A DNA stretch of 64,000 nt from Escherichia coli (GTDB lineage Bacteria > Pseudomonadota > Gammaproteobacteria > Enterobacterales > Enterobacteriaceae): assembly GCF_044324785.1 (NCBI RefSeq), contig NZ_CP172127.1; one strand, 5' to 3'. The translations under genes were made by a program, and so were the position numbers. Below the pieces are notes generated by a model, which saw only the letters and a list, made by a program, of their open reading frames with translations, did no database searches and was not told where the DNA came from. Positions 22,175-60,108 of the stretch are shown here, one piece after another (within the stretch, counting starts at the first letter, position 1; every line of letters begins with the position of its first letter).

Positions 22175-22851
22175 CACCGGACATTATCCTGCAGCGTACC
22201 GGGATCGACGTGAGAGCTGTCGAACAGGGGGATGATGCATGGCACAAATTACGGCTCGGCGTCATCACCGCTTCAGAAGTTCACAACGTGATAGCAAAGC
22301 CCCGCTCAGGAAAGAAGTGGCCTGACATGAAAATGTCCTACTTCCACACCCTGCTGGCTGAGGTTTGCACCGGTGTGGCTCCGGAAGTTAATGCTAAGGC
22401 GCTGGCCTGGGGAAAACAGTACGAGAACGACGCCAGAACCCTGTTTGAATTCACTTCCGGCGTGAATGTTACTGAATCCCCGATCATCTATCGCAACGAA
22501 AGTATGCGCACCGCCTGCTCTCCCGATGGTTTATGCAGTGACGGCAATGGCCTTGAGCTGAAATGCCCGTTTACCTCCCGGGATTTCATGAAGTTCCGGC
22601 TCGGTGGTTTCGAGGCCATAAAGTCGGCTTACATGGCCCAGGTGCAGTACAGCATGTGGGTGACACGAAAAGATGCCTGGTACTTTGCCAACTATGACCC
22701 GCGTATGAAGCGTGAAGGACTGCATTATGTCGTGGTTGAGCGGGATGAAAAGTACATGGCGAGTTTTGACGAGATGGTACCGGAGTTCATCGAAAAAATG
22801 GACGAGGCACTGGCTGAAATTGGTTTTGTATTTGGGGAGCAATGGCGATGA
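22171..22851 (+). CDS. exo: Exo (Red-alpha 5'-3' exonuclease)
   Basis: 226 aa [43 protein letters not shown]... Confidence 0.9.
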
Positions 22852-23030
22852 CGCATCCTCACGATAATATCCGGGTAGGCGCGATCACTTTCGTCTACTC
22901 CATTACAAAGCGAGGCTGGGTATTTCCCGGCCTTTCTGTTATCAGAAATCCACTGAAAGCACAGCGGCTGGCTGAGAAGATAAATAATAAACGGGAGGCG
23001 GTATGCACAAAGCATCTCCTGTTGAGTTAA
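22842..23030 (+). CDS. Hypothetical small protein (ea-region)
   Basis: 62-aa ORF; start overlaps exo stop. Confidence 0.35.
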
Positions 23031-23194
23031 GAACGAGTATTGAGATGGCACATAGCCTTGCTCAAATTGGAGTCAGGTTTGTGCCAATACCAGTAGAAAC
23101 AGACGAAGAATTTCATACGTTAGCCACATCCCTTTCACAAAAGCTGGAAATGATGGTGGCGAAAGCAGAAGCAGATGAGAGAGACCAGGTATGA
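23003..23194 (+). CDS. Hypothetical small protein (ea-region)
   Basis: 63-aa [29 protein letters not shown]... Confidence 0.4.
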   Translation: MHKASPVELRTSIEMAHSLAQIGVRFVPIPVETDEEFHTLATSLSQKLEMMVAKAEADERDQV

Positions 23195-23204
23195 CAACCA
23201 CTGA

Positions 23205-23486
23205 ATGCATTTTTCTGGCAGCGGGCTTCATATTCTGTGTGCTTATGCTTGCCGGCATGGGGCTTGTTCAGTGACACCTCAGCAAGAAAACGCCCTTCGC
23301 AGCATTGCCCGTCAGGCTAATTCTGAAATCAAAAAAGCCAGACAGCAGTTTCCGGATAAAAACGTCGATGACATTTGCCGTAGCGTGCTAAAGAAGCACC
23401 GCGAAACGGTAACGCTGATGGGATTCACACCGACTCATTTAAGCCTGGCGATCGGCATGTTGAACGGCGTCTTTAAGGAACGATGA
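23205..23486 (+). CDS. Hypothetical small protein, start uncertain (possibly GTG near 23272)
   Basis: ORF ending ...HLSLAIGMLNGVFKER; overlapped by a 27-aa hydrophobic ORF in another frame (23191-23274). Confidence 0.3.
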   Translation: MHFSGSGLHILCAYACRHGACSVTPQQENALRSIARQANSEIKKARQQFPDKNVDDICRSVLKKHRETVTLMGFTPTHLSLAIGMLNGVFKER

Positions 23487-23584
23487 ACATGAAAAGCAAA
23501 ATCATCAGGGAGCTACAGGCTCCTTTTTTATTATTCGCATTTACCCTCAAGCGTATTAACCAACAATTCAGGGATTAATGAAAG

Positions 23585-23803
23585 ATGGCAGACATCATTG
23601 ATTCAGCATCAGAAATCGAAGAATTACAGCGCAATACAGCAATAAAAATGCGTCGTCTGAACTACCAGACTGTATCCGCAACTCATTGTTGTGAGTGTGG
23701 CGATCCGATAGATGAGCGAAGACACCTGGCTGTTCAGGGTTGTCGGACTTGTGCAAGTTGCCAGGAGGAGATCGAACTTAAGAACAAACAATGGGGACTG
23801 TGA
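23585..23803 (+). CDS. TraR/DksA-family C4 zinc-finger protein (lambda Orf73-like)
   Basis: 72 aa with CxxC...CxxC (CCECGDPIDERRHLAVQGCRTCASC). Confidence 0.7.
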   Translation: MADIIDSASEIEELQRNTAIKMRRLNYQTVSATHCCECGDPIDERRHLAVQGCRTCASCQEEIELKNKQWGL

Positions 23804-24129
23804 TGGCCTCAAAGCAGCAAATTTCAACATCGTCCAACTGGGGTGTAAAAATGTTCAGAATCATTTTTCCTAACACCTGGTACGTCGACCACCACGGCAC
23901 TCCCTGCAAAATCCTGCGTTCTACCCACAACAAAGTTCACTACATCCGAAAAGGCAGAACATGTATCGCCAGCATGTTCCGCTTTAATCATGACTTTGAA
24001 CCTGTGAATAAAGCTGATGCAGATCGGATAGCAGAAGAGATCGAAACGGCAGAACACATTAAGAAGTTACGTGACATGCGTTCAAAAAGCAGAGGTAACC
24101 ATGGAATCATACAGCCTCACACTCGATGA
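23803..24129 (+). CDS. Hypothetical protein upstream of xis
   Basis: 108-aa ORF; ATG overlaps the TraR-like stop (TGATG). Confidence 0.4.
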   Translation: MASKQQISTSSNWGVKMFRIIFPNTWYVDHHGTPCKILRSTHNKVHYIRKGRTCIASMFRFNHDFEPVNKADADRIAEEIETAEHIKKLRDMRSKSRGNHGIIQPHTR

Positions 24130-24472
24130 GGCCTGTCAGTTTCTTAAGATATCCAGACAAACCGCCACCAACTGGATACGAACAGGCCGCCTACAGGCAA
24201 CACGTAAAGATCCAACCAAGCCAAAATCTCCTTACCTCACAACACGGCAAGCCTGCATTGCGGCGCTTCAGTCTCCGCTGCATACTGTCCAGGTGAGCGC
24301 GGGTGATGGCATAACAGAGGAAAGAAAATGTCACTCTTCCGCAGAAATGAAATATGGTATGCCTCGTATTCGCTCCCGGGCGGGAAACGAATTAAGGAAT
24401 CTCTTGGCACAAAGGACAAGCGGCAAGCTCAGGAGTTGCACGACAAGCGAAAAGCAGAACTCTGGCGAGTAG
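24101..24472 (+). CDS. xis: Excisionase-like HTH protein (xisD-like); overlaps int start by 145 nt, may be degenerate
   Basis: HTH-like [26 protein letters not shown]; immediately upstream of integrase. Confidence 0.45.
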
Positions 24473-25491
24473 AAAAGCTAGGGGATTTACCTGATGTCAC
24501 TTTTGAAGAGGCCTGCCTAAGATGGCTTGAGGAAAAAGCTGATAAAAAATCTCTCGATTCAGATAAAAGCCGGATTGAGTTCTGGCTTGAACATTTTGAG
24601 GGTATAAGGCTTAAAGATATCTCGGAGGCAAAGATTTACTCTGCTGTAAGCAGAATGCATAACAGAAAGACGAAAGAAATATGGAAACAGAAAGTTCAGG
24701 CCGCCATCAGGAAAGGTAAAGAACCGCCTGTTTATGAACCAAAGCCAGTATCAACTCAGACAAAGGCAAAGCATCTTGCCATGATAAAGGCCATTCTCCG
24801 TGCTGCAGAACGCGACTGGAAGTGGCTGGAAAAAGCGCCTGTCATCAAGATACCAGCGGTCAGAAACAAGCGAGTCAGATGGCTGGAAAAGGAGGAAGCA
24901 AAACGCCTTATTGATGAGTGCCCCGAACCACTGAAATCTGTCGTCAAGTTTGCGCTGGCAACTGGTCTGAGAAAGTCGAACATCATAAATCTGGAATGGC
25001 AACAAATCGACATGCAGCGACGAGTTGCCTGGGTGAATCCAGAAGAGAGCAAATCAAACCGCGCCATTGGTGTGGCGCTGAACGATACCGCCTGTAAAGT
25101 GTTGCGTGATCAAATAGGCAAGCATCACAAATGGGTGTTTGTACATACCAAGGCGGCTAAGCGAGCAGATGGAACATCAACGCCTGCGGTCAGGAAGATG
25201 CGCATCGACAGCAAGACATCATGGCTATCAGCTTGTCGTCGTGCAGGAATTGAAGATTTCCGTTTCCATGACCTCAGACACACCTGGGCAAGCTGGCTGA
25301 TCCAGTCAGGCGTCCCATTATCAGTGCTTCAGGAAATGGGCGGATGGGAGTCCATAGAAATGGTTCGTAGGTATGCTCACCTTGCGCCTAATCATTTGAC
25401 AGAGCATGCAAGGAAAATAGACGACATTTTTGGTGATAATGTCCCAAATATGTCCCACTGTGGAATTATGGAGGATATAAAGAAGGCGTAA
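24328..25491 (+). CDS. intD: Tyrosine integrase (DLP12 IntD-type)
   Basis: 387 aa; catalytic region [11 protein letters not shown]...VRRYAHL; ends 15 bp from tRNA-Arg. Confidence 0.9.
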
Positions 25492-25506: not shown

Positions 25507-25583
25507 TGGCGCGCCCTGCAGGATTCGAACCTGCGGCCCACGACTTAGAAGGTCGTTGCTCTATCCAACTGAGCTAAGGGCGC
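25507..25583 (-). tRNA. argU: tRNA-Arg (anticodon UCU), argU; prophage attachment site
   Basis: Reverse complement reads GCGCCCTTAGCTCAGTTGGATAGAGCAACGACCTTCTAAGTCGTGGGCCGCAGGTTCGAATCCTGCAGGGCGCGCCA. Confidence 0.9.
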
Positions 25584-30646: not shown

Positions 30647-31339
30647 TTAGTTTAAGTTCACTTCTCTGACCGGGGTTACTGAACCATAATCATTAACGGT
30701 CTGAAATTTCAGCTTTCCCTGCACTCCTGAGGGTAAGGGAATTTGTGAATTAACTCTGGGTGCAGCCATAGCATTCCCCAGTTTTTGGCTGCCCACTTGC
30801 AGGTTAACCAGGGTGACATAAAAAGGTGATGGATTATGAACATTGATATAGTTACCGGATCGCGAAAACTTGAGTGTGTCCGGCGCTTCTGCGGGTAATT
30901 CTTGTAGTTGAATTGGACGGAGAAATAACTTCATGCGCGATAAAATCGCCAGTTGCAAAACATTCCTGCCGTTCAATGCATTTTTATCTACCGAAGGGAT
31001 CGTCTTAACATTCATCCAGAACAGAGACTCACGATCTGCCGCCAGCGGTGGACCGGTGTAAATAATACGCAAAGTATTTTCGCTTTTGGGTTCACTAACA
31101 AACAGTGGCGGTGTAATGATGAATGACTTTTCTTTTACACCGCTGCTGTTTTCAATCCACGAGTTGACCAGAAAACGCTCATTGGTATGGCTATTTCTAA
31201 TCCATACCGCAGTCTGTTTAGCATCAGCGGGATAAATAATACGCGTGGCACCTAATGCGATCCCTCCGGCAGCATGGGCGCTGGCCGAAATGATTAAATA
31301 AAATATAATGAGCATCAATAACTTTATTTTAGTCATCAT
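30647..31339 (-). CDS. sfmC: Fimbrial periplasmic chaperone SfmC
   Basis: 230 aa PapD-like chaperone. Confidence 0.85.
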
Positions 31340-46977: not shown

Positions 46978-47106
46978 GTCATACCACTCGCCTGATTATT
47001 TTTAGCTATGTTGGATTTTGCCACGGTTTATACCGTGGCTTTTTTTGTAGTAAATTCAGGTAAAAAACGGATGCGGGATAAAATGCATCCGCTCTAATGG
47101 CAAGAG

Positions 47107-60010: not shown

Positions 60011-60072
60011 TGGCCGGTATTCTGAAACGGCGATTGTCGTGAGAACAGAATGGTTGCACCAGAATACAGATA

Positions 60073-60108
60073 TAAAAAAACCGACATGACAGTCGGTTTT
60101 TTATTTTT
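60073..60108 (+). terminator. Intrinsic terminator after selU
   Basis: CCGAC-ATGACA-GTCGG hairpin followed by TTTTTTATTTTTT. Confidence 0.7.

Follow-up and report, generated by a model that had tools for sequence, protein, structure and literature searches.

Between exo and xis of a lambdoid prophage in Escherichia coli, an open reading frame of 27 codons lies across the beginning of a longer one in a different frame, and the locus raises the question of which of the two frames is read as a gene. The short frame had been pointed out in a preliminary description of this DNA, and it is indeed present at 23191–23274 on the plus strand, between exo and xis/int, as judged from the list of open reading frames and the annotation. 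The leftward early (pL) operon of the prophage occupies positions 21389–25491 on the plus strand of the window, by which we mean the whole 64-kb stretch of DNA that was analysed. The features of the locus are the following:

21389–22174, plus strand: bet, pL operon
22171–22851, plus strand: exo, pL operon
22842–23030, plus strand: orf60a, a DUF1317 protein, pL operon
23003–23194, plus strand: orf63 homologue, DUF1382 (Pfam PF07131, E = 7.7e-31; PGAP coding sequence)
23191–23274, plus strand: 27-codon ORF with ATG start, from the ORF list, encoding the hydrophobic peptide MTTTECIFLAAGFIFCVLMLAGMGLVQ; proposed coupled small gene
23205–23270, plus strand: N-terminal extension of the mechanical 93-aa ORF, annotated in 933W L0070, VT2-Sakai H0081 and phage Turner
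23271–23486, plus strand: 71-aa gene, WP_000188870.1 (PGAP; phrog_303), the full-length, unframeshifted homologue of lambda orf61
23331–23336, plus strand: A6 run inside the 71-aa gene, from the alignment (A7 in lambda and close relatives)
23483–23578, plus strand: 31-codon ORF, with an ATGA overlap with the stop of the 71-aa gene and a terminator-like hairpin inside
23585–23803, plus strand: orf73 homologue, a 72-aa TraR/DksA-type protein (Pfam PF01258; PGAP name)
after orf73, plus strand: DUF4222 protein, pL operon
24071–24472, plus strand: HTH excisionase-like ORF (PGAP: HTH protein)
24328–25491, plus strand: tyrosine integrase (int), pL operon
25510–25583, minus strand: tRNA adjoining the integrase (Rfam gathering-level match)

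The tRNA beside the integrase is likely the attachment site. The HTH excisionase-like ORF extends ca 145 nt into the integrase ORF, and the annotation of this xis/int junction varies, with an HTH protein given by PGAP and a 56-aa ORF in another frame given for phage Turner. Elsewhere in the window, Rfam matches at gathering level are found for the sRNA STnc480 (46984–47050, minus strand) and the antisense RNA AgrB (60072–60159, minus strand).

The 1.27-kb block at 22840–24110 is 96–99% identical to many lambda-like and Stx-converting phages, and it is present in 3678 of the 5426 complete E. coli genomes. The exo-xis block affects the lysis–lysogeny decision and the induction of Shiga-toxin prophages, and its genes, which number seven ORFs in the literature list (PMC3824215), are being dissected singly by deletion and modelling.

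It is important to describe the borders of the 27-codon ORF. The stop codon of orf63 (TGA, 23192–23194) overlaps its start as ATGA (gtATGAca), and its own stop overlaps the GTG at 23271, which is in frame with the 93-aa ORF, as GTGA (caGTGAca; ATGA in 84% of the relatives). PGAP leaves the 76 nt between orf63 and the 71-aa gene blank, and the 27-codon ORF, which is without annotation in PGAP/RefSeq and in the standard lambda record, fills exactly that gap. The calculated Shine–Dalgarno pairing at its ATG is −5.6 kcal mol−1, compared to −4.9 at orf73, −4.7 at GTG 23271 and −3.8 at ATG 23205, the start of the 93-aa ORF, where no pairing lies at a usable spacing. The exact peptide has already been deposited as a "hypothetical protein", with Gly22 in KNY58316.1 and with Asp22 in UniProt A0A0A2SGE8 (ca 980 contigs). 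Some gene callers or submitters have thus already predicted the ORF, and nobody has named or studied the peptide.

Among the 5426 complete genomes, the 27-codon ORF occurs at 4151 places, distributed over 3110 genomes, and the 71-aa gene at 4398 places, distributed over 3207, so that the two are tightly linked. The 84-nt ORF exactly as it stands in the window is matched at an identity of at least 99% by just 14 E. coli records. At two sites the window has the less common allele, with Gly22 in the peptide (position 23255) and GTG as the start of the 71-aa gene (42 of 263 loci). The common peptide with Asp22 is identical in 221 of the 254 loci that span the ORF (87%) and the Gly22 allele is found in six of them, while two loci carry Q27*, which leaves a peptide of 26 residues. 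Some rare 89-aa database proteins (P0118, P0120, P0125, P0127, P0129 and P0137) are in-frame fusions of orf63 and the peptide that arise through a 1-nt change in the ATGA overlap. The majority derive from short or single contigs, and they may therefore be sequencing errors and not natural.

Two further ORFs lie downstream in the same block. The preliminary description took the adjacent 72-aa protein for a TraR/DksA-like factor of the RNA polymerase-binding type, and this assignment holds, the protein being a homologue of lambda Orf73 that matches PF01258 with 36.5 bits against a cut-off of 24.9. Its N-terminus (MADIIDSA...) has the DxxDxA motif (DIIDSA; D3xxD6xA), and four cysteines are arranged as CxxC...CxxC. 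Lambda Orf73, of the TraR family, has been found in experiments to bind RNA polymerase and to inhibit rRNA promoters (PMC9239242). The 31-codon ORF contains a terminator-like hairpin at 23507–23525 with a T run (to 23535), and a terminator t2 has been predicted at this place (PMC4195576). It is annotated as a 29-aa coding sequence in phage Turner, and its variants among the 263 related loci introduced below are 6 synonymous and 13 non-synonymous.

Frame preference of the natural variants

The 27-codon ORF is intact and free of indels in all of the 254 loci that span it. Since the region is highly conserved (95–99%), this is weak evidence when taken alone, and the informative signal is instead which frame the variants respect. 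We have used a sample of 263 related loci with at least 90% identity, collected from IMG/VR, metagenomes, phage records and E. coli genomes, and tabulated each distinct single-base variant with the window as reference.

At 23194–23270 there are 21 distinct variants, a small number from a block that is 92–100% identical and in which variants are not phylogenetically independent. With this limitation, 11 of them are synonymous and 10 non-synonymous in the frame of the 27-codon ORF, corresponding to an omega of ca 0.29 (p = 0.005, with an expected synonymous fraction of 0.24). When only the variants present in at least two loci are counted, the numbers are 10 and 5 (omega ca 0.16, p = 0.0006). 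In the frame of the 93-aa extension, the same variants are 6 synonymous and 15 non-synonymous (omega ca 0.69), and those in at least two loci are 2 and 13 (omega ca 1.8), neither of which is significant. The third sense frame has 4 and 17 (omega ca 1.17, also not significant). Allowing for a 3:1 transition bias gives the same picture.

The neighbouring genes can be used for comparison. The same test yields 22 synonymous and 25 non-synonymous variants for the 71-aa gene (omega ca 0.32, p = 1e-4), 30 and 35 for orf73 (omega ca 0.32, p = 1e-5) and 25 and 30 for orf60a (omega ca 0.39, p = 6e-4), and the synonymous excess in the 27-codon frame thus resembles that of its neighbours (0.32–0.39). On the other hand, orf63 fails the test (9 synonymous and 28 non-synonymous), despite the fact that the NMR structure of its protein has been solved (PMC10869804), which means that the test is noisy and can miss real genes. 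The pattern in orf63 suggests relaxed or diversifying selection, or else this noise. The C-terminal tail of orf63 is polymorphic (T42A, V52A, D58N, Q62P and V63A).

The positions of the variants can also be considered. All of the 11 third-position variants in the peptide frame are silent. Of the variants that leave the product of the extension frame unchanged, all but the G22D polymorphism are singletons or doubletons. At the borders of the 27-codon ORF the three-base periodicity shifts its phase, the third positions falling at a position modulo 3 of 0 inside the ORF and of 2 in the 71-aa gene. A total of 11 variants of the peptide are seen. Besides G22D, the replacements found in more than one locus are T3A (11 loci), F8L (8), E5K (2) and Q27* (2), and the changes to polar or charged residues within the hydrophobic stretch (I7T, G12D and I14K) are each a singleton. 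As far as such sequence comparisons reach, the comparative evidence supports the 27-codon ORF as the likely coding unit of the interval.

Independent of the variants, the borders can be examined where phage modules have been exchanged. In 310 of the 5426 complete genomes, a phage gene for a Dam-type N6-adenine methyltransferase replaces orf63, and in these mosaics the homology restarts exactly at the ATG of the peptide (query position 32, corresponding to 23191 of the window). The methyltransferase stop overlaps this ATG as ATGA, with GGGAGG 7 nt upstream. An example is the gene at 647–1204 of locus L275 (NZ_CP024826.1), which is found at the position equivalent to orf63 and is ATGA-joined to the 27-codon ORF. 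In a metagenomic contig (L086), an unrelated 251-aa gene takes the place of both orf63 and the 27-codon ORF, and the 71-aa gene begins at the Met equivalent to 23271. Both kinds of junction agree with the borders proposed for the genes and pass over ATG 23205.

Orf61 in the Stx phages and in lambda

We now turn our attention to the longer frame. According to the preliminary description, the 27-aa ORF overlaps in a different frame a larger ORF ending in NGVFKER. Such a 93-codon ORF does exist, at 23205–23486, but the evidence does not support two genes with a long overlap. GTG 23271 is the most likely start of the downstream gene, and the overlap with it is then the four bases GTGA, compared to a frame overlap of 66 nt according to the 93-aa reading. 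Position 23271 is an ATG in 221 of the 263 related loci (84%), lambda included, and it is also the start that PGAP assigns to WP_000188870.1 (71 aa). The 93-aa form is the version of the phage submitters (phage Turner, 933W L0070 and VT2-Sakai H0081).

In this light, one has to consider the alternative that the true gene is the 93-aa ORF beginning at ATG 23205, which is the form annotated in 933W, VT2-Sakai and phi24B, and that the 27-codon ORF is open merely by chance. The exo-xis literature uses the 93-aa form (PMC8614690, PMC6213356), phrog_303 spans all 93 residues, the frame is open in all loci, and the AlphaFold model has a helix at residues 8–17. In the PHROGs search (phrog_303 / phrog_26061), the E-values are 4.7e-36 for the 71-aa product and 1.8e-42 for the 93-aa product. 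However, the variants of the extension behave as neutral ones, its ATG is the one that has no usable Shine–Dalgarno pairing, and in the single-sequence AlphaFold model of the 93-aa form the pLDDT is 41–57 for residues 1–20, compared to 77–93 from ca residue 21 to 90. The PDB search with the phi24B model was restricted to residues 24–93, the part that has the three-helix fold (PMC8614690). The frame also varies in how far it is open upstream. The codon at 23202–23204, just upstream of ATG 23205, is TGA in the window and a sense codon in many relatives, and the extension is therefore without a stable upstream boundary; in lambda the frame is open up to an ATG inside orf63. Together with the start at 23271 chosen by PGAP, the ATG found there in most loci and the use of the same Met in the metagenomic mosaic, these results make the 93-aa gene a quite unlikely reading. 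The 22-codon extension (23205–23270) is probably noncoding in this frame, and its long overlap with the 27-codon ORF, as a "93-aa orf61", is best explained as an artefact that arises when annotation picks the longest ORF available.

Some further observations concern the 71-aa protein itself. Many NCBI records call it "cell division protein ZapA". The sole support found for this name is a Pfam ZapA match below threshold (E = 0.014, with 16 bits where 23.8 are required), and the name looks like an over-annotation. A fold search of the PDB with the 93-aa model gave no match with E < 1, and it confirmed neither "ZapA" nor "homeodomain-like". Divergent homologues of the 71-aa gene (<80% identity) were considered as an outgroup and discarded as unfit for a codon analysis, L084 and L085 being error-prone, frameshifted assemblies and L086 and L087 carrying insertions or being mosaic. 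Another option considered was a programmed frameshift that would fuse the peptide to the 71-aa protein. This was rejected by inspection, since no slippery heptamer precedes the stop and the shift needed would be −1.

Lambda carries the 27-codon ORF at 31008–30925 (complement), with ATGA overlaps at both ends, and encodes the common allele with Asp22, MTTTECIFLAAGFIFCVLMLADMGLVQ. The annotated lambda orf61 (61 aa, 31024–30839) contains this ORF in another frame. It consists of three parts: a first one that starts inside orf63 and runs in the alternative frame across the peptide ORF, a second one comprising the first 22 codons of the 71-aa gene, and a third one that is a frameshifted tail caused by an A7 run (A6 at 23331–23336 of the window; the 30860s in lambda). 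Lambda orf61 is in other words a frameshifted chimera. The A7 allele, which truncates the 71-aa gene, is found in 20 of 177 phage records, and A6 in the 157 others as well as in the window. The carriers of A7 are lambda, hybrids of it made in the laboratory and some near relatives, among them DE3, the imm21/imm434 hybrids, HK630, O276, D2, 4W and E26-Berryhill. The record MW057783.1, "Campylobacter phage CJLB-4" (48,361 bp), has the lambda A7 allele at lambda-like coordinates and is probably a lambda contaminant or mislabelled.

The 27-codon ORF thus lies at the same locus as lambda orf61, vb_24B_7c of phi24B and L0070 of 933W. It is read in a different frame from Orf61 and shares no residues with it, and the 93-aa form of the Stx phages contains the last 70 nt of the ORF. 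The lambda Orf61 protein has been noted to be one that "appears truncated" (PMC8614690), and neither the frameshift nor the 27-codon ORF is described in the exo-xis papers found.

This has consequences for how published results on orf61 are to be read. By RT-qPCR, the lambda "orf61" RNA is as abundant as the N mRNA (PMC4195576), and the amplicon used takes in the 3' end of the 27-codon ORF. In PMC8614690, the extra lambda ORFs named from ribosome profiling in this block are orf2311 (7 aa) and orf2313 (31 aa), and the 27-codon ORF is not among the extra ORFs named there. Like the latter, these two are unannotated mini-ORFs of the same conserved block, and orf2313, which is reported to be translated, corresponds in size to the ORF at 23483–23578 of the window, directly after the 71-aa gene. 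Because orf61 covers the 27-codon ORF in the lambda annotation, footprints on the ORF would be credited to orf61, and the ribosome-profiling support for "orf61", in the form in which it is cited, cannot tell the frames apart. For the same reason, namely that orf61 contains the ORF, the published deletions and frameshift mutants of orf61 (PMC6213356, PMC4195576) may also hit the 27-codon ORF.

A putative membrane peptide

The peptide had been characterized beforehand as hydrophobic, and the numbers agree. Its GRAVY value is 1.73, the third highest among 267 ATG-started ORFs of 20–40 aa from all six frames of the window (top 1–1.5%). It has a short polar N-terminus, MTTTE, followed by a hydrophobic stretch of ca 20 residues (residues 6–26), which on hydropathy is long enough for one bilayer span. 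The best 19-residue Kyte–Doolittle mean is 2.49 for the Gly22 allele and 2.33 for the Asp22 allele, and the corresponding unweighted Hessa sums are −2.45 and +0.30 kcal mol−1. There is no Lys or Arg, and the sole charges are Glu5 and Asp22, the latter being placed by the common allele inside the hydrophobic stretch. The positive-inside flanking charges that are usual in small inner-membrane proteins were not found in the peptide. Two cysteines are conserved, and no lipobox was seen by inspection.

The searches for relatives gave little. For the peptide there are no matches in Pfam, in PADLOC or among the PDB sequences, the best NCBIfam match has E = 0.034, below the cut-off, and the best PHROGs matches (E ca 0.6–0.7) are to generic "membrane protein" families, with no match to phrog_303 or phrog_26061. 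A tblastn search of 50,697 phage records returned only matches of at least 92% identity, all of them in lambdoid phages of E. coli, and no homologue was found outside this narrow block of E. coli phages. The peptide sequence was not found in the supplements of the EHEC Sakai Ribo-seq work. We have also considered the peptide as a general companion of DUF1382, a possibility that was dropped, since the divergent orf63 paralogues (75–80% identity) are without the mini-ORF and are followed directly by ea22-like or unrelated genes.

Two known classes of small proteins resemble the peptide in some respects. The small single-pass inner-membrane regulators of E. coli, of the AcrZ, MgtS, MgrB, PmrR, KdpF and YohP types, are likewise proteins of 27–50 aa with one hydrophobic helix and no enzymatic domain, and are easily missed. 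Unlike the AcrZ/MgtS-type regulators, to which it has no sequence relationship, the peptide lacks the basic residues for a positive-inside topology and is encoded by a phage, within an early operon that would be translationally coupled. The type I toxins (Hok, Ldr, TisB, Ibs, ShoB and DinQ) are similarly short and very hydrophobic peptides on mobile elements, and growth inhibition on overexpression, the earlier idea for this ORF, is a trait of that class. In contrast to these toxins, the 27-codon ORF is an internal cistron of an operon and not a stand-alone locus. As to a type I antitoxin, no antisense RNA or sRNA was detected, no Rfam family is found at the locus, and none of the promoter-like sites in the region (2, compared to 1.7 ± 1.5 in shuffles) suits a short antisense RNA over the start.

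We consider it rather probable that the exo-xis block has a genuine small gene in the 27-codon ORF, which is translated in a coupled manner and gives a membrane peptide, the long overlap being an artefact. What is observed in this regard is the anatomy of the ORF, the frame-specific selection signature, the module boundaries and the hydrophobicity. From these we infer the translation of the peptide, its membrane insertion and any host target, and the sequence of events would be as follows. The ORF would be transcribed with the N-antiterminated pL early operon, and since the tL3 hairpin in orf60a (22912–22934) precedes it, its expression should be confined to N-antiterminated transcripts. Ribosomes that end orf63 would restart at the overlapping ATG of the peptide (ATGA), and those that end the peptide at the overlapping GTG or ATG of the 71-aa gene, a coupling to both neighbours that is suggested by the 4-nt overlaps. 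The product would be a single-helix peptide of 27 residues that spans the inner membrane once. Its most likely mode of action would be that of a membrane-inserted micropeptide modulating a host envelope or membrane protein in early phage development, possibly in concert with the 71-aa protein, which is its constant neighbour.

Alternative readings and consequences for the exo-xis block

The four-base start/stop overlaps at both ends are also what one would expect if the 27 codons were translated solely to pass ribosomes from orf63 to the 71-aa gene, with the peptide being functionless and its hydrophobicity incidental. The start of the 71-aa gene in the window is a weak GTG with a modest Shine–Dalgarno pairing, the gene is nearly always accompanied by the 27-codon ORF, and no family or homologue was found for the peptide, all of which would fit such a role. 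However, a mere relay would leave the amino acids unconstrained, yet the omega is ca 0.16–0.3 and the peptide is identical in 87% of the loci. Furthermore, the 71-aa gene of the metagenomic mosaic is expressed from its own ATG in the absence of the 27-codon ORF, and lambda keeps the ORF intact despite the frameshift in its 71-aa gene. Since the amino acids appear to be constrained and lambda retains the ORF next to a broken 71-aa gene, a pure relay is the less likely explanation, and we regard it as unlikely.

The two remaining alternatives place the signal outside this sense frame or outside coding altogether. The interval of 76 nt might be a spacer or an RNA element that is conserved but non-coding, with the ORF never being translated. 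This would agree with RefSeq leaving it blank, and the high nucleotide conservation might have a different origin, for instance a recent spread of the block. However, there is no Rfam match at the locus, the predicted fold is weaker than that of shuffled controls (z = +1.0), and a three-base periodicity of the variants in the phase of the ORF is not expected of an RNA element, which leaves this option very improbable. The coding unit could finally be an antisense ORF of 61 codons (23258 down to 23073, minus strand), which shares its third positions with the 27-codon frame and takes up part of the signal. It is open in lambda and in the window and has a weak synonymous excess (6/12 in the peptide region and 11/13 in the orf63 region, p ca 0.05 each). 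However, its start codon is lost in eight loci (M1I), and three of nine third-position variants are replacements, compared to none of 11 in the sense frame. The periodicity phase changes at the borders of the 27-codon ORF and not at those of the antisense ORF. There is no promoter-like site just upstream, the nearest minus-strand match lying ca 270 nt upstream and ending at 23530, and the two promoter-like matches in the region are no more than in shuffles. The antisense ORF also runs opposite to the sole known transcription (pL) and has no family match. We give it a probability that is close to negligible.

Returning to the reading of the 27-codon ORF as a small coupled gene, the object in itself is an ordinary one, a small ORF that encodes a hydrophobic peptide and has been overlooked, here in a very well-studied place, and the mis-annotation of its neighbour is correctable. 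The relevance is mainly for those working on the early genes of lambda and the Stx phages. If the gene map is wrong here, a 27-aa gene has been missed, the start of orf61 in the Stx phages has been misplaced by 22 codons, and orf61 of lambda is chimeric. The orf61 mutants in the literature would in that case be double mutants, and the lambda version would serve poorly as a model of the protein in Stx phages. Constructs for expression or structure determination would carry a spurious, hydrophobic-looking N-terminus, and insoluble aggregates have been reported (PMC6213356). The peptide is also a simple candidate, and a very widespread one, for a phage-encoded micropeptide with an action at the host membrane.

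A more far-reaching possibility, which we regard as doubtful, is that an early gene for a membrane micropeptide of 27 residues has been overlooked in lambda and in the prophages of more than half of the sequenced E. coli, and that this gene causes part of the effects attributed to "orf61", since any deletion of orf61 takes away the peptide as well. If true, the effects in question would be those on the lysis–lysogeny choice and on the timing of induction, the adsorption defect of phi24B, and possibly also the block of host replication known as "bin" of exo-xis.
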